The position numbers and the translations under genes are program-made. A stretch of 62,159 nucleotides of DNA from Patescibacteria group bacterium. Lineage in GTDB: Bacteria; Patescibacteriota; Minisyncoccia; Sungbacterales; HO2-52-23. The notes under the pieces were generated by a model, which made no database searches, was not told where the DNA came from, and saw only the letters and a program-made list of their open reading frames with translations. The stretch lies in NCBI GenBank assembly GCA_038063315.1, contig JBBTVI010000008.1:1-62159 (forward strand), in the 5' to 3' direction. Shown here piece by piece: positions 3,740-62,159 of this stretch; the first letter of the stretch is position 1, and every line of letters starts with the position of its first letter.

Positions 3740-3780
3740 AGCCGTGGGAGGATCATCAATCGAGAAGACATTTACTCATT

Positions 3781-3821
3781 GGAGGTTTAACCTCGTAAGC
3801 GGCTTACGAGGTTAAACCTCC
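3781..3821. repeat. 41-nt perfect palindrome (20-nt arms) built on the GGAGGTTTAACCTC motif
   Basis: GGAGGTTTAACCTCGTAAGC-G-GCTTACGAGGTTAAACCTCC, between lepA start and ndk stop. Confidence 0.8.
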
Positions 3822-3874
3822 TCATGCGCGTTCGTCAGCGCGATTGAAGATACAGCAAGAAAATTTGCCAAAGT

Positions 3875-4465
3875 TCAAAACATAATATCCTCTTCCGCGC
3901 GTTTGTAGCCGTGGAGATCATCGGCTCCGAACCAAAAAGCGAGTTCGTGGGCGGCCTCCTCCGGGGTTTCTGAGGCGTGGATGAGATTGTGCACCGCGCG
4001 CTTTCCGGCATTGGCGAGCGCCGGGGAATCCACGGAGTAGTCGCCGCGAATCGTCCCCATTTCCGCCATGTTGGGAAGGGTGTGGCCGCAGAGTTTACGC
4101 ACCATGTCCACGGCATGAATTCCCTCAATGGCCATTTTGATAATCGGGCCGGAAACCATAAAATCCACGATCCAACCGCGCACCATTTTTCCGATTTGCT
4201 CCGGGTCGTCGGTGCCGAGAACTTCTTTGGCGTCAATGCTGTATTTTTCGTATGTGGCCATGGTTTTGCCGCCGAGGCGCCGGATCCATTCGGGATTTTT
4301 CGGGTAGTGCTCGTCAATGTGTTCGCGCGAGGCCAGAATCATTTTGAGGGCAATAATCTTAAGCCCGCGTTGTTCGATGCGCCGGATGATTTCGCCGACA
4401 AGACCGCGTTTGACGCCGTCGGGCTTGATGAGGACCAGTGTTTTTTCTTCGTTGGGGTGAGACAT
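3875..4465 (-). CDS. ndk: nucleoside diphosphate kinase (long form with internal insertion)
   Basis: TLVLIKPDGVKRGLVGEIIRRIEQRGL, active-site region NLIHASE; start trimmed to MSHPNEEK to avoid overlap with the upstream kinase gene. Confidence 0.88.
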   Translation of the reverse strand: MSHPNEEKTLVLIKPDGVKRGLVGEIIRRIEQRGLKIIALKMILASREHIDEHYPKNPEWIRRLGGKTMATYEKYSIDAKEVLGTDDPEQIGKMVRGWIVDFMVSGPIIKMAIEGIHAVDMVRKLCGHTLPNMAEMGTIRGDYSVDSPALANAGKRAVHNLIHASETPEEAAHELAFWFGADDLHGYKRAEEDIMF

Positions 4466-5472: not shown

Positions 5473-5620
5473 GTCATTGCGAGGAGTCCTGCTGCAGGAC
5501 GACGAAGCAATCCAGCATTTCTGCCTTTACGGATTGTTTCGTCGCTGCTGCTCCTCGCGATGACGATCGAAATGGATTGCCGCGCGCCCCCTCGACAGAC
5601 TCGGGGTCGCTCGCAATGAC
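5473..5620. repeat. REP-1 element, copy 4 (three units)
   Basis: GTCATTGCGAGGAGTCCTGCTGCAGGACGACGAAGCAATCC ... CTCCTCGCGATGAC ... GGATTGCCGCGCGCCCCCTCGACAGACTCGGGGTCGCTCGCAATGAC. Confidence 0.9.
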
Positions 5621-16764: not shown

Positions 16765-16945
16765 ATGGTATAGCCCCCGCAAAACAAAATGTCCCTTTTA
16801 TTTCTGTCATTCCCGCGAAGGCGGGAATCCAGGTTTTTCCTTTTAGATGAGGCAGAACCTGGGCCCCCGCCTGCGCGGGGGCGACAACCGGAGAGAATTA
16901 TTGCGTTATTGAAACGGTCATTTTGTTTTGCAGGGGCTATATCAT
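16765..16945. mobile_element. 181-bp MITE-like element with 27-bp terminal inverted repeats
   Basis: left ATGGTATAGCCCCCGCAAAACAAAATG, right CATTTTGTTTTGCAGGGGCTATATCAT (25/27 complementary); interior has the hairpin GTCATTCCCGCGAAGGCGGGAATCC (16806-16830) and CCCCCGCCTGCGCGGGGG. Confidence 0.5.
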
Positions 16946-20854: not shown

Positions 20855-21640
20855 TCACCTTCTTTCGCCCGCATCAATCCGGTACCAATCGATATTTCTT
20901 GTGAGATACATTGTTAGCGCAAGAAGCGCAAAAAGCAGGATTGAACCATAAAAGAGAGCGAGGTCCTCAAGCTGAACGATGACATAGAGATAAGAGTACA
21001 AGAGGGCCAAAAGCGCGGAGACGATGGATGCCTTTTTATTCGCCTTCAATACTTTTGCGCTGTAACTTGCGATCAAGCCGATCGTGGCCATGGTCGAAAT
21101 GACATACGCAGGCAGGAAGCCGAATCTTTCCGAGAAAGACAGCAGAAGCAGATAAAAGAGCGCAAGCGCAAAACCGACGAGCAGGTACTGAAACGGATGA
21201 ATTTTTATTTTGCTTAGAATTTCAAATAGGAAGAATGCCAGAAAAGTTATCGCAATAAACATAACGGCATATTTTATCGTCCGGTCTATCTTTGTATAGA
21301 AATCAACGCTTTGGATGAGCGAGACCCCGAATCGCGCATTGAGAATGGTTTGCTGATCCGTTTCTCCGTCAACCCATTGCTGCGGATATGAGCGGCCGAA
21401 GGACGAAATAGACCAGTTTGCGGAAAAACCATCCGTGACCTCTCGCGTATTGGGGAGATAGGCGCCGGTAAAACTCGGAGAACTCCAGCGCGATTTAATA
21501 TCCACTTTTGTTTCGCCTCCGAGAGGCAAAAATTCCAATTGCTCGCTCCCTTGCAAATTAAGCGCATATGAAAAATCAAATGTTTTTTTCGCTGGATCAA
21601 AAGGAACAAATGCGTGAATTCCGTTTAAATATTAAAACCC
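20855..21640 (-). pseudogene. creD: 5'-truncated creD-like gene (C-terminal about 260 codons only)
   Basis: SPSFTGAYLP, TIKYAVMFIAITFLAFFLFE, HPFQYLLVGFALALFYLLLLSFSE match the C-terminal half of CreD; frame stays open upstream to a TAA at about 21641 with no plausible start. Confidence 0.6.
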
Positions 21641-21825: not shown

Positions 21826-22362
21826 TTACCGCCTCTCCCAGTACTCAATACACAGCTCGATTTCTTCCTCGAGCGCGTCGTTGCTTGTGCTGTTCAGCGA
21901 TGGTCCCTTCCAGCGGCATGGCCACGCCTCGAAGAAATTATAACGGACAACTTCCTCCATGTTTGCGCCGATGACGATGATGGAACCGCTCTTTCGTTCG
22001 GTGATGCCCTCAACTACTTTTTTTCGCCACTCCCATAGTTCCGGCGTGTGAAGATTGCCGCGACGGAGGATGATGTTTGAGTAATTCGTCTTGCCCGGCC
22101 GTTTATGCATAATCCGCTCGTTGCCTTCCTGGTATTCTATAACTTCGGTCTTCGATTCGAGGCCGTCAACCTCCTTGAAACCGCCGACGACAACGCCGTC
22201 AATCTCGACGTTGAAATTGTGGATTGTGGTGTAATCGCTCCGATCACTCCCCATTGCTGCGGCTTCCTCGTGAGGATAGAGGGTTCCCGCATAAAAGAGG
22301 AGAGCGCTCATCCCGAGGAGACCTGTGCATAGTACGGCCGTGTGATTTTTTAAGACAATCAT
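21826..22362 (-). CDS. phage tail-tube-like protein (T4 gp19 / contractile-injection-system tube family) with N-terminal hydrophobic anchor
   Basis: FNVEIDGVVVGGFKEVDGLESKTEVIEYQEGNERIMHKRPGKTNYSNIILRRG..ELWEWRKKV..NFFEAWPCRWKGPSLNS...EEIEL matches the family consensus; preceded by a 45-aa segment with TM-like AVLCTGLLGMSALLFYAG. Confidence 0.8.
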   Translation of the reverse strand: MIVLKNHTAVLCTGLLGMSALLFYAGTLYPHEEAAAMGSDRSDYTTIHNFNVEIDGVVVGGFKEVDGLESKTEVIEYQEGNERIMHKRPGKTNYSNIILRRGNLHTPELWEWRKKVVEGITERKSGSIIVIGANMEEVVRYNFFEAWPCRWKGPSLNSTSNDALEEEIELCIEYWERR

Positions 22363-23490: not shown

Positions 23491-23850
23491 ATGGCAGTCC
23501 TCAATCACACCATCAACACAATACCGAGAGAATCTGCGCCGATCGCCCGTATTGGTCCCAAGCACCAGGTGACGATTCCGAAAGAAATCTTTGACAAGCT
23601 TTGCCTCGATGTCGGCGACTACCTCGACGTGCAGGCAACCGGAGCGACAATTGTCATGACTCCGAAGAAGCTAATCCCGAAGGATCAGGAATGGTTTTAC
23701 ACGAAAGAGTGGCAGGTAAAAGAGCGCGAAGCGGACGAGGCGATTGCCCGAGGTAAGGTCTCCGGTCTATTCACCACTGCTGATCAACTCATGGCGCATC
23801 TGAACTGCGCGTTGGCCCCGCGACCCAACCGCAAGCAAAAACAACGATGA
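23491..23850 (+). CDS. AbrB/MazE/SpoVT-type antitoxin (paralog of 15830..16132)
   Basis: HQVTIPKEIFDKLCLDVGDYLDVQATGATIVMTPKK; C-terminal ARGKVSGLFTTADQLMAHL parallels RAGRVSGPFATVDELKRHL. Confidence 0.75.
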   Translation: MAVLNHTINTIPRESAPIARIGPKHQVTIPKEIFDKLCLDVGDYLDVQATGATIVMTPKKLIPKDQEWFYTKEWQVKEREADEAIARGKVSGLFTTADQLMAHLNCALAPRPNRKQKQR

Positions 23851-24104
23851 GGATTCAGACGACCGCACCCTTTGACCGGGATTTTGCTGTGCTTCCTGTT
23901 ACGATTCAGCAGCGTGTGGAGAAGCAATTCCGTCTCTTGACTGAGAATCCTCGCCATTCGTCTTTGCGGCTCAAAAAGATGGAAGATCCCCGTGATATCT
24001 GGGAAGGACGCGTGACGCAATCCTATCGCTTCACCTTTCAGATTGTCGGCGATCTCTATCTCCTCCGCCGCATTGGCACGCACGACATTCTCCGGCGGCC
24101 GTGA
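23847..24104 (+). CDS. ParE/RelE-superfamily toxin (paralog of 15591..15830)
   Basis: HSSLRLKKMEDPRDIWEGRVTQSYRFTFQIVGDLYLLRRIGTHD; ATGA overlap with antitoxin. Confidence 0.8.
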   Translation: MRIQTTAPFDRDFAVLPVTIQQRVEKQFRLLTENPRHSSLRLKKMEDPRDIWEGRVTQSYRFTFQIVGDLYLLRRIGTHDILRRP

Positions 24105-24163
24105 TACGTTCCGCGCACTTCTCCGATTGCTATAGCCATATTAAAAAAATGCCTCTTTTTTCT

Positions 24164-24188
24164 GTCATTCCCGCGCAGGCGGGAATCC
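24164..24188. repeat. GTCATTCCCGCGCAGGCGGGAATCC hairpin (HP-3 family)
   Basis: near-identical to 16806-16830; upstream flank TATAGCC..AAAAATGCCTCTTTTTTCT resembles the left arm of the 16765 element. Confidence 0.7.
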
Positions 24189-24326
24189 AGGTTTTCTGCG
24201 TCCAAGAGGTGCTCGCATTTTGAATTTCAGGAACTGGAAGTAAAGGAAATATCCGAACACCAAGATTGTAAAAATCAGCAGGACAAATTTGAGGACAAGA
24301 GACGAATAAAAAGTGACAATGTTCAT
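24165..24326 (-). CDS. possible 53-aa hydrophobic peptide (very tentative)
   Basis: hand translation MNIVTFYSSLVLKFVLLIFTILVFGYFLYFQFLKFKM...; its 3' end runs into the HP-3 repeat, so it may be spurious. Confidence 0.2.
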   Translation of the reverse strand: MNIVTFYSSLVLKFVLLIFTILVFGYFLYFQFLKFKMRAPLGRRKPGFPPARE

Positions 24327-24487
24327 TCTATGTTGCGAATTCCAAATCTGTATGGACTGCTGGCATATTTCGCTATTACGCCCATTCTGCTCGCAAATTG
24401 ACCGTAATGCCTTTATACGATAGGTTAAATCACGCTGTAATTAGTTCATACGCGAGAATCGAAAAACTCCTTCATATATTTGCGGGA

Positions 24488-25126
24488 TTAAAAAATCGGC
24501 CGGGTCAGTTCGTGCAAGAATTTATGCATTATTCCCAAAGCAAAAGAGCAATATTCCTTGCTTAATCGTAAGTTATCATTATATATGCGAATTCCATTTT
24601 TCGATGATTTTGCGATATAATTTCTCAGTTTTTTATTGTTGGTCCCCAGTTCGCCACCAGCGTGTGCCAGACAATTACGCACGAGCCCAATCGCGACCAC
24701 TTCATTCCATAGCTCTTCATTTGGCATGACCTTGTTGCACGCTTTCTCTAAATAAATTCGAGCGCGGTGTATACCACTCCCTCTGATATCTTCAAGGTTG
24801 ATTTTGACGGCATTTTTTGCGCACCATTTCCGGCATAATCGATTCATCTTGTGTTCCAAATAACTGAAAAGGGCGATGACAAAAGAAGAGTAAAAAATGT
24901 CATAGCGCTCGCCGAGAAGGTACTTGCTTTCGGATAGTGCATCGTCCGACCGTTGTTTTTCGTCTAGCGACAACTGCTGATCTTCATAACGCTGGTCTGT
25001 GTCCGATTGCTCATTGTCAATTTCGTCGCCGTCGTTGTTCAGTATGGCTTCCAAATCATCCAGATAGGATTCAAAATGATTGAGTTCAAATGAGATTTTT
25101 TCCGAATCAATTTCTATATAAGGCAT
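24488..25126 (-). CDS. HEPN-like protein (putative RNase) with acidic N-terminal region
   Basis: R150-N-C-L-A-H155 (nt 24662-24679) is the R-x4-H / R-N-x-x-x-H HEPN signature in a helical C-terminal half; low-GC gene. Confidence 0.55.
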   Translation of the reverse strand: MPYIEIDSEKISFELNHFESYLDDLEAILNNDGDEIDNEQSDTDQRYEDQQLSLDEKQRSDDALSESKYLLGERYDIFYSSFVIALFSYLEHKMNRLCRKWCAKNAVKINLEDIRGSGIHRARIYLEKACNKVMPNEELWNEVVAIGLVRNCLAHAGGELGTNNKKLRNYIAKSSKNGIRIYNDNLRLSKEYCSFALGIMHKFLHELTRPIF

Positions 25127-25173
25127 ATCACAACCCGTTGAATCAATAATCTGGATGGTAGCCCATCATCGTC

Positions 25174-25261
25174 GTCATTGCGAGCGCCTCCGAGTTTGAC
25201 GAGGTGGCGCGCGGCAATCCAGCATTTTGGATTGCTTCGTCGTCTGACTCCTCGCAATGAC
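25174..25261. repeat. REP-1 element, copy 6
   Basis: GTCATTGCGAGCGCCTCCGAGTTTGACGAGGTGGCGCGCGGCAATCCAGCATTTTGGATTGCTTCGTCGTCTGACTCCTCGCAATGAC. Confidence 0.9.
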
Positions 25262-25526
25262 GTATAGAAGGGCGGTGTTGGAAGGAGCTATGAGGGGGGT
25301 CTAACTCCATAGAAGTTTCATCAGACGACTTTGTTTTTACTAAAAAAATTTCTTTTTCTTCATCGGCATTCGCGGCATGCTGGTGATAATCAATATGACG
25401 AATTTGGTTGGCTGGCGGTATTATAAGCGATGTTAGAATCCTTGTCTTGCACGGAATACGGAATATCGTTGTTTATCGTTTTTCAAAATATTCCCGCCGA
25501 ACTTTTTTGTGGATAATGGACACGGA

Positions 25527-25730
25527 TCAAAGCCCTAAATTGGTATACGTGCTATAGATACCGATAAATTGAGGAACGAGAACTATGAGTCCGATGAGAG
25601 GGAAAACAATCACCGCAACGGAAATCGTGAGGGTCCAGAAAAAGTACCGCCGCATCTGTCGGCTTATTTTCATCTGTTCATCGAATTTCTTTTCAATGGT
25701 GTCTAATTTTTGCAGAATTTCTTGGTCCAT
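25527..25730 (-). CDS. small membrane protein, 67 aa
   Basis: N-terminal charged helix (QKLDTIEKKFDEQMKISRQMRR) then TM hairpin; very AT-rich. Confidence 0.45.
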   Translation of the reverse strand: MDQEILQKLDTIEKKFDEQMKISRQMRRYFFWTLTISVAVIVFPLIGLIVLVPQFIGIYSTYTNLGL

Positions 25731-25745
25731 AGTGTGTGGCTTAAT

Positions 25746-26201
25746 CTAGTTTTTAATTGTTGCTAAAAGGACTAATGCAAAAAGATTTAAAATAACCATT
25801 CTCGCGACCAAATGATTTCTTTGAGTATCTAGAAAATCTATATAGTCTCCGAAACCATGCCTATGGCTATCGTAGTGCGGTTTCGCTCCGCCTTCGGTAA
25901 CTCCTCGCCCCTTAAAACTCTCACTTAAATATTTTTCTCCCAATACAAGATATTGTTTCGCGGTGATAATTTTCCCCTCAACCTGTTTAACTTTAAACCA
26001 GTAAAAAAGAATTAAAGCTACTATAAACACTACTTTAAAACCGATAGGTGAAAATAAGAACACAAGAAGCCCAATAAGTATAAAAACTATCTCCTCAAGA
26101 TCTATCAAACTAGCACGAACAGAAAAATCCTTATTCCAATCTTCTTTGTACTTGATTACTTTTTCAATGGAATATTCTTTGTATTGATCTTGTTGCTCCA
26201 T
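25746..26201 (-). CDS. membrane protein, 151 aa, three predicted TM helices
   Basis: IVFILIGLLVFLFSPIGFKVVFIVALILFYWF and C-terminal MVILNLFALVLLATI; very AT-rich. Confidence 0.55.
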   Translation of the reverse strand: MEQQDQYKEYSIEKVIKYKEDWNKDFSVRASLIDLEEIVFILIGLLVFLFSPIGFKVVFIVALILFYWFKVKQVEGKIITAKQYLVLGEKYLSESFKGRGVTEGGAKPHYDSHRHGFGDYIDFLDTQRNHLVARMVILNLFALVLLATIKN

Positions 26202-26238
26202 AAAATACTCTTCGGAGTCCGAACTTATCTTAGGCTAA

Positions 26239-26311
26239 CTGCCGGGCTAGGGCTCGAACCTAGAGTTTCCTGCTCCAAAGGCAGGCGTGTTGCCAATTAC
26301 ACTACCCGGCA
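26239..26311 (-). tRNA. tRNA-Gln (anticodon UUG), copy A
   Basis: hand fold: TGCCGGG/CCCGGCA acceptor (U1-A72), GTGT-AATTGGCA-ACAC, CCTGC-CTTTGGA-GCAGG, CTAGG-TTCGAGC-CCTAG, discriminator G; identical to 31743-31815. Confidence 0.85.
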
Positions 26312-26321
26312 ATAATGCGCT

Positions 26322-26661
26322 TTACGCGGATAATTTTTCTTGCGGCGATTGTTCGGACTGATCCGCCAGGATTTCCAAAATCGTTATCTCAAGAGGGAGT
26401 TGGGGAATGGGAGAGGCGCGGAAGCGCTGGAGGTTGTCGGTGATCGTAAGCACCGCGCGGGTAAGGATGGGTTCGTCCAAATGAGGGAGATTTTTTGCGA
26501 TGCAGTCGCGCTCCGCAGGCAGCATATCCTCCGCAAACCGCGGAGCCGCTGCGGCATCGAGGTGCAGAAGGAGTGCGTGGCGGAAATAGCGGAGGAGCAG
26601 GCGGAGAAGCGCTGTGGTGTCGCTACCCGCGTCGGCAAGTTCCTGAACAAGCGCGAGCGCT
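26322..26661 (-). pseudogene. dnaX: dnaX 3' fragment (last about 113 codons, no 5' part)
   Basis: translates to ALALVQELADAGSDTTALL...MLPAERDCIAKNLPHLDEPILTRAVL...QEKLSA, matching the C-terminus of 31826..32947; upstream in-frame stop 5 codons beyond the repeat edge. Confidence 0.8.
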
Positions 26662-31707: not shown

Positions 31708-31742
31708 AGCATTAACTCCTCTCGGTAGGGGTCACAGTTTTT

Positions 31743-31815
31743 CTGCCGGGCTAGGGCTCGAACCTAGAGTTTCCTGCTCCAAAGGCAGGCGTGTTGCCAA
31801 TTACACTACCCGGCA
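31743..31815 (-). tRNA. tRNA-Gln (anticodon UUG), copy B
   Basis: identical to copy A. Confidence 0.85.
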
Positions 31816-32165
31816 ATAATGCGCTTTACGCGGATAATTTTTCTTGCGGCGATTGTTCGGACTGATCCGCCAGGATTTCCAGGATCGTTATCTCAAGTGG
31901 AAGCTGGGGAATGGGAGAGGCGCGGAAGCGCTGGAGATTGTCGGTGATCGTGAGCACCGCGCGGGTGAGGATGGGCTCGTCTAAATGCGGGAGATTTTTT
32001 GCGATGCAGTCGCGCTCCGCGGGCAGCATATCCTCCGCAAACCGCGGAGCAGCGGCGGCGTCCAGACGCAGAAGGAGCGCGTGGCGGAAATAGCGGAGGA
32101 GCAGGCGGAGAAGCGCTACGGTGTCGCTACCCGCGTCGGCAAGTTCCTGAACAAGCGCGAGCGCT
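31743..32165. repeat. 423-bp direct repeat, copy B (tRNA-Gln + 3' end of intact dnaX)
   Basis: see 26239-26661. Confidence 0.9.
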
Positions 32166-32947
32166 CCGGCCGGGTTTTTCTCTGCAATGAGGGAAAACAA
32201 TTTTTGCGCGGCCTCGCTTTTGGGAAGGCCGAGGATATCCTCCACTTCCGTTGAGGTTATTTTTTTGTCTTCCGCGGCCATGATTTGCCCGAGAATGCTT
32301 TCCGCGTCGCGGAGGGACCCCTCTCCGGCGCGCGCGATCAGATGCGCGGCCTCGGGCGCGAGCGCAACTTTTTCTTTTTTCGCGATTGCGCCGAGGCGGG
32401 AGGCGACCGCGGAAATCGGCGGTCGGCGGAACGTATAATGCTGGGTGCGCGAGACGATTGTCGCGGGCATTTTTTCAATCTCGGTTGTGGCGAGGATGAA
32501 GACCACATGCGTCGGGGGCTCTTCCAGCGTTTTGAGGAGCGCATTGAAGGCCTCTTTGGTCAGCATGTGGCATTCGTCCACGATATATGTTTTGAAGGAG
32601 CCGCCTGGGGGAGCGAAGCGCGCGGATTCGCGGAGCGCCCGGATTTCGTCAATGCCGCGGTTGGAGGCCGCGTCAATCTCGATCACGTTGAGAGCGCGAT
32701 TGCCGTTGAACTCTGCGCACGAGGCGCAGGAATTGCAGGGTCTCACTGCACCAGTACAGTTGAGCGATTTTGCGATGAGGCGAGCAATCGTGGTCTTGCC
32801 TACGCCGCGTGGCCCCGCGAAAAGATACGCGTGCGCGACGCGGTTCGTCTTGATGGCGTTGGTGATTGGCCGGACGATATGGTCCTGCCCGACGATATCG
32901 TCAAATGCCATCGGGCGATATTTCCGGTAAAGGACGAGATGGTTCAT
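31826..32947 (-). CDS. dnaX: DNA polymerase III subunit gamma/tau
   Basis: Walker A GPRGVGKTT, Zn module CNSCASCAEF, YIVDECHMLT, SRTQ. Confidence 0.9.
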   Translation of the reverse strand: MNHLVLYRKYRPMAFDDIVGQDHIVRPITNAIKTNRVAHAYLFAGPRGVGKTTIARLIAKSLNCTGAVRPCNSCASCAEFNGNRALNVIEIDAASNRGIDEIRALRESARFAPPGGSFKTYIVDECHMLTKEAFNALLKTLEEPPTHVVFILATTEIEKMPATIVSRTQHYTFRRPPISAVASRLGAIAKKEKVALAPEAAHLIARAGEGSLRDAESILGQIMAAEDKKITSTEVEDILGLPKSEAAQKLFSLIAEKNPAGALALVQELADAGSDTVALLRLLLRYFRHALLLRLDAAAAPRFAEDMLPAERDCIAKNLPHLDEPILTRAVLTITDNLQRFRASPIPQLPLEITILEILADQSEQSPQEKLSA

Positions 32948-45069: not shown

Positions 45070-45250
45070 GTCATTGCGAGCGACCCCGAGTCTGTCGAGG
45101 GGGAGCGCGGCAATCCATTTTAATCGTCATTGCGAGCCGAAATGGATTGCTTCGTCGTCCTGCAGCAGGACTCCTCGCAATGACGACTCCCTCTGGATTG
45201 CGGAGCCTGTCCCGAGGGAAGCGAGGGATCGTCTGACTCCTCGCAATGAC
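45070..45250. repeat. REP-1 element, copy 8 (four units: B, short, A', C')
   Basis: GTCATTGCGAGCGACCCCGAGTCTGTCGAGGGGGAGCGCGGCAATCC ... GTCATTGCGAGCCGAAATGGATTGCTTCGTCGTCCTGCAGCAGGACTCCTCGCAATGAC ... GGATTGCGGAGCCTGTCCCGAGGGAAGCGAGGGATCGTCTGACTCCTCGCAATGAC. Confidence 0.9.
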
Positions 45251-62066: not shown

Positions 62067-62159
62067 GTCATTGCGAGGAGTGGAGGAATCCCTCACTTCG
62101 CTCAGGACAGGCTCCGCAATCCAGAGGGAGTCGTCATTGCGAGGAGTCCTGCTGCAGGA
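62067..62159. repeat. REP-1 element, copy 14 (unit C forward + unit A, cut by window edge)
   Basis: GTCATTGCGAGGAGTGGAGGAATCCCTCACTTCGCTCAGGACAGGCTCCGCAATCC AGAGGGAGTC GTCATTGCGAGGAGTCCTGCTGCAGGA. Confidence 0.85.

Follow-up and report, generated by a model that had tools for sequence, protein, structure and literature searches.

A predicted solo HEPN protein of a widespread, unnamed family encoded in a low-G+C islet of a Patescibacteria contig

Proteins of the HEPN superfamily share a core of two alpha-hairpins arranged as an all-alpha, up-down bundle, and their hallmarks are an R-x4-6-H motif that ends helix 3 and a polar residue (N, D or H) after the arginine; helix 2 of such families often contributes a conserved acidic residue, and inserts separate it from helix 3 (Anantharaman et al. 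2013, PMC3710099). A solo HEPN protein that both senses and kills was worked out recently for HepS ("HEPN Solo"), the abortive-infection protein of prophage Gifsy-1; a phage protein switches this latent oligomer on, and its activity is that of an anticodon nuclease (PMC13043305). We analyzed a 62,159-nucleotide contig from a Patescibacteria group bacterium (JBBTVI010000008.1, hereafter the window when taken over its full length), in which a low-G+C islet at positions 24105-26238 carries on the minus strand a gene for a 212-aa protein (24488..25126). An earlier note on this DNA had described the islet as a likely abortive-infection or defence cassette, in which a HEPN nuclease is accompanied by membrane-protein partners. 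The best explanation of our results, to which we assign a probability of about 0.6, is instead that the islet is a patch of accessory DNA with three functionally unconnected genes, a single one of which encodes a stand-alone HEPN protein of a widespread unnamed family. The HEPN kind itself is already known, and the solo HEPN family to which the 212-aa gene belongs is unnamed. A gene labelled "hypothetical protein" in all annotated records examined (one phage, 13 plasmids and a metagenome-assembled genome) thereby gains a family worthy of a name.

The gene model was examined along with the other features listed in the earlier note, whose four open reading frames (ORFs) and tRNA-Gln gene all proved to be correctly placed. 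In NCBI record AAB539_00655, the gene starts at an internal TTG 24 codons later and yields a 188-aa hypothetical protein. The ATG at 25126, which yields 212 aa, is the better start, since alignments with relatives begin at residues 1-13 and 212 aa is also the length called in an independent assembly. A sigma-70-like promoter match (AAGACA-17-TATAAT, 10/12; 25420..25448, minus strand) lies upstream of the gene and is weak evidence, as the region holds fewer such sites than its shuffles. An exhaustive HMMER search returned 1,531 representatives of clusters drawn at 50% identity (E<=1e-3), 193 of them at E<=1e-10; word-indexed homologue searches with the protein and with the family alignment returned essentially the self-match only. 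The family is distributed patchily over Bacillota, Pseudomonadota, Bacteroidota, Spirochaetota, Acidobacteriota and candidate phyla. The best 150 of the 1,531 representatives have a median length of about 220 aa and nearly all consist of a single domain, and the longer relatives showed no Pfam domain fusions. Hydropathy of the 212-aa protein gave no long hydrophobic stretch of the transmembrane (TM) kind.

Conservation within this family centers on the motif that had led the earlier note to propose a HEPN nuclease. Nucleotides 24662..24679 (minus strand) do translate to R150-N-C-L-A-H155, and R150 and H155 are the sole invariant columns in alignments of 61 and of 78 members. All but 2 of the 150 best representatives (148) have the R-x4-H motif, the residue after the arginine being N in 139 of these 150, D in 4 and H in 3. 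Six further positions (N151, E91, C98, G118, K128 and G158) are kept in at least 90% of relatives, including the conserved acidic residue of the long second helix (E91, codon at 24854..24856, minus strand). The 212-aa ORF is full length and has every conserved residue intact.

Profile searches pointed to the same superfamily. Among PADLOC models, PDLC03820 (RTasHEPN) was the sole significant match of the 212-aa protein (E 6.3e-7, residues 134-207) and was matched by 50 of the 61 relatives with a best E of 8e-12, the HEPN label of this model itself resting on remote homology. The nearest curated profile, Pfam PF18735 (HEPN_RiboL-PSP), was matched by 10 of the 61 relatives (best E 2.3e-4) just below threshold, and the family consensus of the C-terminal domain reached E 1.3e-5 and 25.6 bits against a cut-off of 28.4. 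Other relatives touched Pfam HEPN_Cthe2314 and HEPN_MAE_28990 as well as HEPN models of Csm6, Csx1 and Cas13a. The search of HEPN profiles proposed in the earlier note thus yielded evidence for HEPN, significant with a PADLOC model and just below threshold with Pfam, and, with R150 and H155 conserved, the HEPN call withstands the refuting conditions set there. Compared with HEPN_RiboL-PSP proteins, the first hairpin of the 212-aa family is unusually long and acidic, and we saw no fused or operonic L-PSP-type partner.

Structure prediction with AlphaFold2 and the family alignment gave an all-helical model of high confidence (predicted local distance difference test score, pLDDT, 95.9; predicted TM-score, pTM, 0.90). 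Its helices span residues 8-48 and 54-105, which form a long hairpin that includes E91, followed by a short helix at 118-128 and helices 137-156 and 165-173, then a beta hairpin and a last helix at 190-207; R150..H155 sit at the C-terminal end of predicted helix 137-156. The isolated C-terminal domain was modelled with the same picture (pLDDT 95.3). In the predicted model, the 212-aa family thus matches all HEPN features of PMC3710099, namely, the place of the motif, the polar N after the arginine, the acid of helix 2 (E91) and the insert between helices 2 and 3, and it shares with the superfamily an all-helical domain, the R-N-x3-H signature, and defence or mobile contexts. Judging from the motif, the topology and the hidden Markov models rather than from fold search, the 212-aa protein is very probably a member of the HEPN superfamily. 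By analogy with its characterized members, it is likely to be an active RNase, predicted to be a metal-independent endoribonuclease.

The model also bears on the N-terminus, which had been described as extremely acidic. This holds, as the first 70 residues contain 22 D/E and 5 K/R (isoelectric point, pI, 4.05, versus 9.6 for the remainder); the acidic stretch is, in the model, the first helical hairpin and not a separate tail. We considered whether the acidic N-terminus might be disordered or act as an inhibitor domain of its own and rejected both ideas, given that the hairpin is helical with a pLDDT of about 98 and is continuous with the conserved core.

To place the gene in a comparative setting, we examined 19 loci with relatives of the 212-aa protein (numbered L001-L010, L012 and L025-L032). 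The related-locus search used a 10-sequence family alignment, and the metagenome scan returned one locus. An AbiJ protein (Pfam Abi_C, PADLOC PDLC02347) is encoded directly upstream of family members at two of the loci. In Planococcus donghaensis (L002, 5132-6576), the AbiJ/Abi_C protein lies 18 nt upstream of the relative with Shedu SduA adjoining, and on a Caballeronia plasmid (L032, 2910-4486), it lies 12 nt upstream, with an integrase in addition. The window has no AbiJ. These two bacteria are unrelated, and an occasional two-gene arrangement of AbiJ and solo HEPN is possible. On a Chryseobacterium plasmid (L026), the relative is found near a UvrD/GajB (Gabija) helicase, a recombinase, a restriction endonuclease and an AbiD-type protein; a metagenome contig (L010) has a helicase-restriction endonuclease (MTES_1575) and a DUF4268 protein nearby, and L006 has a REase_MTES_1575 protein. 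Vibrio and Paraburkholderia plasmids carry IS3 or IS30 elements and an integrase near relatives, Bacillus pBb an integrase, a recombinase and NucS, and a Leptospira plasmid ImmA/IrrE. In Bacillus phage vB_BteM-A9Y, the relative has the HNH endonuclease gene on one side and the small terminase gene on the other. Across the 19 loci, no partner gene recurred except AbiJ at two of them, and a single HEPN gene without a conserved partner, on mobile or accessory DNA, was the pattern seen in these contexts.

Some observations were made on viral and plasmid relatives in their own right. A tblastn search found one phage record, other than Gifsy-1, and a scan of viral contigs found no relatives of the family. 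Foldseek against BFVD returned one uncharacterized 215-aa Myoviridae protein (TM-score 0.72), which is probably a family member. On a Vibrio alginolyticus plasmid (L027), two HEPN-family paralogues (635-1336 and 3752-4402) lie about 2.4 kb apart with an IS3 element between them.

The name of the matching PADLOC model called for a comparison with defence-associated reverse transcriptase (DRT) systems, RTasHEPN being probably, as we understand it, the HEPN-like partner of the UG22 reverse transcriptases of Mestre et al. 2022 (PMC9226505). The 212-aa protein and these systems share the same model match, but a UG/Abi reverse transcriptase was found beside none of the 19 relatives, nor among the neighbours in the window. 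One of the 149 ORFs neighbouring the 19 relatives matched a PADLOC model named RT, and the reverse transcriptases near relatives are those of group II introns (L004, read from the ORF sequence, and L031, ltrA). Having no adjacent UG/Abi reverse transcriptase, the 212-aa gene is not a DRT system.

Relatives of the 212-aa gene lack a conserved partner and occur on plasmids, in one phage, and next to integrases and restriction, AbiJ, Shedu and Gabija genes; these settings suggest a defence role, a latent form and a trigger. By analogy with such neighbours, a role of the 212-aa protein in defence or abortive infection stands at about even odds. The 212-aa protein resembles HepS in being a lone HEPN protein of modest size, in its canonical R-x4-H motif, in having no conserved partner gene and in residing on mobile DNA; the motif differs in position (R100-H105 in HepS versus R150-H155 in the 212-aa protein), and no similarity to HepS in sequence or fold was detected in the searched libraries, whose inclusion of a HepS entry is unconfirmed. 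The resemblance is a functional analogy only. Following it, the 212-aa protein would be made as a latent oligomer, in keeping with the contexts of its relatives and the HepS precedent, until a cue derived from an invader activates it. As HEPN biochemistry would predict (PMC3710099), two protomers would join their R-x4-H motifs into a metal-independent endoribonuclease site, and cleavage by the paired site would leave 2',3'-cyclic phosphate ends. The activated protein might then cut tRNA or mRNA and so arrest the cell, being sensor and effector in one, as is HepS. Speculatively, the acidic hairpin facing the basic catalytic half could be the latch.

In its fullest form, this proposal would make the family a new, widespread, single-gene abortive-infection system, in which the acidic hairpin silences the basic RNase half until the invader signal arrives; we hold it tentatively and consider it rather unlikely. 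If true, the gene would count among the few recognizable innate-immunity genes in the genome of a Patescibacteria (candidate phyla radiation, CPR). A second, unrelated and far more widely distributed solo HEPN family would also offer a comparative test of how such enzymes stay latent.

Several results weigh against reading the 212-aa protein as a stand-alone HEPN defence protein. No model of Pfam, NCBIfam or PHROG reached threshold with the protein itself, and the RTasHEPN model that did match was built for HEPN proteins accompanying reverse transcriptases, of which there are none here. Foldseek against the PDB, run with the full model and with the C-terminal domain, gave nothing significant (best Csm6, E about 2-4, probability about 0.1). 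The structural check proposed in the earlier note therefore delivered an all-helical model with the motif ending a helix and returned no solved HEPN fold. The family profile likewise found nothing among PDB sequences, the phmmer and profile matches being chance coiled coils. About one third of the contexts (L001, L003, L005, L007, L008 and L009) show no defence or mobility genes.

The lack of a Pfam match at threshold and of a HEPN match by Foldseek in the PDB would speak for the alternative that the family is not HEPN at all, being an unrelated helical family that happens to keep R-N-x3-H. An hhalign comparison of the HEPN family with one AbiJ neighbour was also negative, the single-sequence template giving it low power. 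We regard such a coincidence as very improbable, since the invariant motif lies at the position described for HEPN proteins with a polar residue after the arginine and a conserved acidic residue upstream, a HEPN-named PADLOC model is significant in most of the 61 relatives, and sub-threshold matches recur to three Pfam HEPN families and to the Csm6, Csx1 and Cas13a models.

The contexts poor in defence genes bear on another alternative, in which the protein has the HEPN fold and a role outside defence, such as housekeeping RNA processing or binding, or is a decaying passenger, the islet having no function as a unit. Relatives L003, L005, L007 and L009 do occupy unremarkable chromosomal contexts, the window is without integrase, att site or defence genes, and host-type repeats have colonized the islet, so that it is no recent arrival. 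Against it stand a full-length ORF whose conserved residues are all intact, a patchy distribution across phyla, the presence of relatives on plasmids and in a phage, and the recurrence of defence genes beside them. We therefore consider this alternative unlikely and retain the stand-alone HEPN protein as our preferred reading.

How a lone HEPN protein would be kept silent raises the comparison with toxin-antitoxin (TA) systems. The HEPN-MNT (HepT/MntA) type VII systems have in common with the 212-aa gene a small HEPN RNase toxin, and a TA module adjoins the gene here. Minimal HepT toxins are about half the size of the 212-aa protein, whose N-terminal hairpin is extended; moreover, in contrast to HepT/MntA, no MNT nucleotidyltransferase gene is adjacent, the neighbours being the gene of the 67-aa membrane protein on one side and the convergent MazE/ParE-like pair on the other. 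No MNT gene was found in the contexts of the 19 relatives either. The adjoining pair (23491..24104, plus strand, 54% G+C) is convergent to the islet genes and separate from them. The earlier note had called it a ParE module, and this stands in part: the MazE/AbrB antitoxin passes the threshold of Pfam MazE_antitoxin (27.5 bits) and its gene overlaps that of the ParE-like protein by 4 nt, whereas the weak ParE/RelE-like toxin remains below threshold (Pfam ParE_toxin, E 0.0054, 17.7 bits versus a cut-off of 23).

It could be, then, that the 212-aa protein is the toxin of a TA pair whose antitoxin went unrecognized; this might be a small protein, an RNA transcribed from the long 5' leader or from the 3' spacer, or the acidic N-terminal hairpin of the toxin itself. 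HEPN toxins commonly need an antidote, such as the MNT antitoxin in the type VII HepT/MntA system (PMC13000451); long untranslated stretches lie on either side of the gene (25127-25526 and 24105-24487); a bona fide TA pair adjoins; and 87% of relatives have a net acidic N-region and 75% a net basic C-region, the 212-aa protein being at the acidic extreme. Against such a pair, no MNT or other antitoxin domain is encoded nearby, no small neighbour is conserved across the relatives, and the acidic hairpin is predicted to be integral to the fold and not a detachable domain. Nor do the flanks offer an RNA partner. The Rfam scan of the islet flanks returned the tRNA as its sole RNA match, no tandem repeats of the kind seen in type III antitoxins were present there, and the 400-nt spacer folded only marginally better than its shuffles (z -1.8), its fold being dominated by a repeat hairpin. 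An RNA antitoxin or a riboswitch in the flanks was rejected on these grounds. Altogether, an unrecognized TA pair appears unlikely.

The other genes of the islet were then compared with the HEPN gene. The 151-aa protein (25746..26201, minus strand) has a TM hairpin and a C-terminal TM segment by hydropathy, in agreement with the three TM helices assigned to it earlier, and belongs to a conserved Patescibacteria family. Its 36 homologues are all about 152 aa long and 55-66% identical, with 37 invariant alignment columns, a mean column identity of 75% and an invariant C-terminal RNHLVARM..LNLF; the one source name shown for these relatives is Candidatus Lloydbacteria. In six other distinct contexts (L013, L016, L019, L033, L034 and L035), the gene has housekeeping neighbours such as gyrA, ftsZ/ftsA, RNase Y, rpsR/ssb/rpsF and ruvA/murein ligase. 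It directly follows a gene for a DUF5667-type secreted or surface protein in three of the six, and none of them contains a HEPN relative. Conserved but of unknown function, and often located behind the gene of a DUF5667 surface protein, this separate family merits its own study. The 67-aa small membrane protein (25527..25730, minus strand) is called in two assemblies, and no relatives of it were detected in 35 fetched loci. It had been described as a charged helix plus a TM hairpin; hydropathy gives one long hydrophobic stretch at residues 28-61. The 53-aa hydrophobic ORF (24165..24326, minus strand), earlier listed as a possible peptide, is present as an ORF. It has no family matches, its 3' end lies in a palindromic repeat (24164-24188), and it is uncalled in an independent assembly of the same organism (L022); on the latter two grounds we regard it as spurious, and it is probably not a gene.

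In the cassette model of the earlier note, the 151-, 67- and 212-aa genes would belong together in abortive infection; spelled out, the membrane proteins would sense for, anchor or complement the HEPN nuclease. The three genes do share a strand and a low-G+C patch, and a few loci show a similar layout: a 64-aa protein with a zinc ribbon and a TM segment is encoded 100 nt upstream of the closest HEPN relative (L009), L010 has a three-TM protein downstream, and the closest 151-aa homologue (L034) is also followed, 14 nt on, by a small two-TM protein, which has 62 aa and is unrelated to the 67-aa protein. Co-occurrence tells against a cassette, as no relatives of the 151-, 67- or 53-aa proteins were found in the 19 HEPN loci and HEPN relatives are absent from the 151-aa contexts described above; of about 16 proteins encoded directly beside HEPN relatives, no more than 2 have TM segments. 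Within the islet itself, 15 nt separate the 151-aa gene from the 67-aa gene, whereas the HEPN gene lies 400 nt further, past a pair of repeats and the promoter-like site, and its G+C content (41%) differs from that of the 151-aa gene (34%). The cassette is accordingly improbable. The HEPN gene has the two membrane-protein genes as neighbours but not as partners, and its product very probably acts without the 151-aa and 67-aa proteins. What survives of the earlier proposal is the HEPN call and, as plausible, the defence flavour conferred by the contexts of HEPN relatives, not the three-gene cassette. For annotation, the lesson is that an islet beside a tRNA and a TA module seemed to be one cassette, and that comparative context shows three independent genes.

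The composition of the islet was as unusual as first reported. At 40.3% G+C, it is the minimum among all 2,134-bp windows of the contig, which has 52.7% G+C overall; the distribution of such windows has a mean of 52.6% and a standard deviation of 3.6%, placing the islet about 3.4 standard deviations lower. The 67-aa gene has, like the HEPN gene, 41% G+C, and the genes flanking the islet range from 48 to 59%. The hand counts given earlier (13/60, 17/60 and 43/60 G+C) were exact.

The islet begins at the 3' end of tRNA-Gln(UUG) copy A (26238..26312, minus strand), identified by ARAGORN and by the Rfam tRNA model (65.3 bits). ARAGORN also found a second copy at 31742-31816 (minus strand), and both are part of a 423-nt direct duplication (26239-26661 versus 31743-32165, 95% identity) whose unit consists of the dnaX 3' end and tRNA-Gln. 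Full-length dnaX is located at 31826..32947, and the copy at 26313..26661 (minus strand) is a dnaX pseudogene fragment. The 5-kb block between the duplicates encodes a methyltransferase, two NMT1-type binding proteins and a Cache-HAMP-PAS histidine kinase. The arrangement resembles what recombination or insertion at the tRNA would leave behind. Of the features of tRNA-associated islands, atypical composition right at the tRNA 3' end is present, and an integrase and a direct repeat at the far boundary were not found. No integrase is encoded in the islet flanks or beside the duplication, the 22-nt tRNA 3' end has no match beyond the two tRNA copies even when 3 mismatches are allowed, and a search for a boundary repeat of the islet found none. 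A classical tRNA-integrated island, lacking here both integrase and att repeat, was therefore rejected as a description of the islet.

Placement downstream of a tRNA recurs among the fetched loci, with tRNA-Ser at 5536-5621 in L001, tRNA-Gly at 4717-4788 in L013 and tRNA-Glu at 3718-3792 in L019. These tRNA-adjacent relatives lie on low-G+C metagenome contigs, L013 and L019 carrying the Patescibacteria 151-aa family and L001 a HEPN relative. The sample is small and suggests that tRNA-distal sites may collect accessory genes in such small genomes.

Repetitive elements connect the islet with its host. Between the 67-aa and HEPN genes lies a repetitive extragenic palindromic (REP) element (25174-25261) made of an inverted pair of the GTCATTGCGAG core, which bears out the REP copy reported earlier. 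The window holds 30 copies of this 11-mer core where 0.04 would be expected, and the presence of host-type REP elements within the islet implies that the islet is not a very recent arrival. Across the window, REP copies are mostly inverted pairs in intergenic spacers (e.g., at 77, 1549-1681, 5473-5620, 45070-45250 and 62067-62143). The palindrome in which the 53-aa ORF ends, GTCATTCCCGCGCAGGCGGGAATCC (24164-24188), is found again at 16806.

Other features of the window were noted outside the islet. The gene at 21826-22362 (minus strand) encodes a T4 gp19-type tail-tube/sheath-associated protein (Pfam Phage_T4_gp19, E 1.4e-38) and is isolated, no other phage or contractile-injection genes being found in a scan of the directly adjoining genes. 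A 233-aa ORF at 20855-21556 (minus strand) covers the C-terminal half of CreD alone (profile positions 203-428 of 428) and is probably a truncated or split gene. Finally, two long direct repeats of at least 300 nt each, 8198-8497/10907-11206 (99% identity) and 53270-53569/55760-56059 (92%), lie inside large minus-strand ORFs, which suggests recently duplicated paralogous genes.

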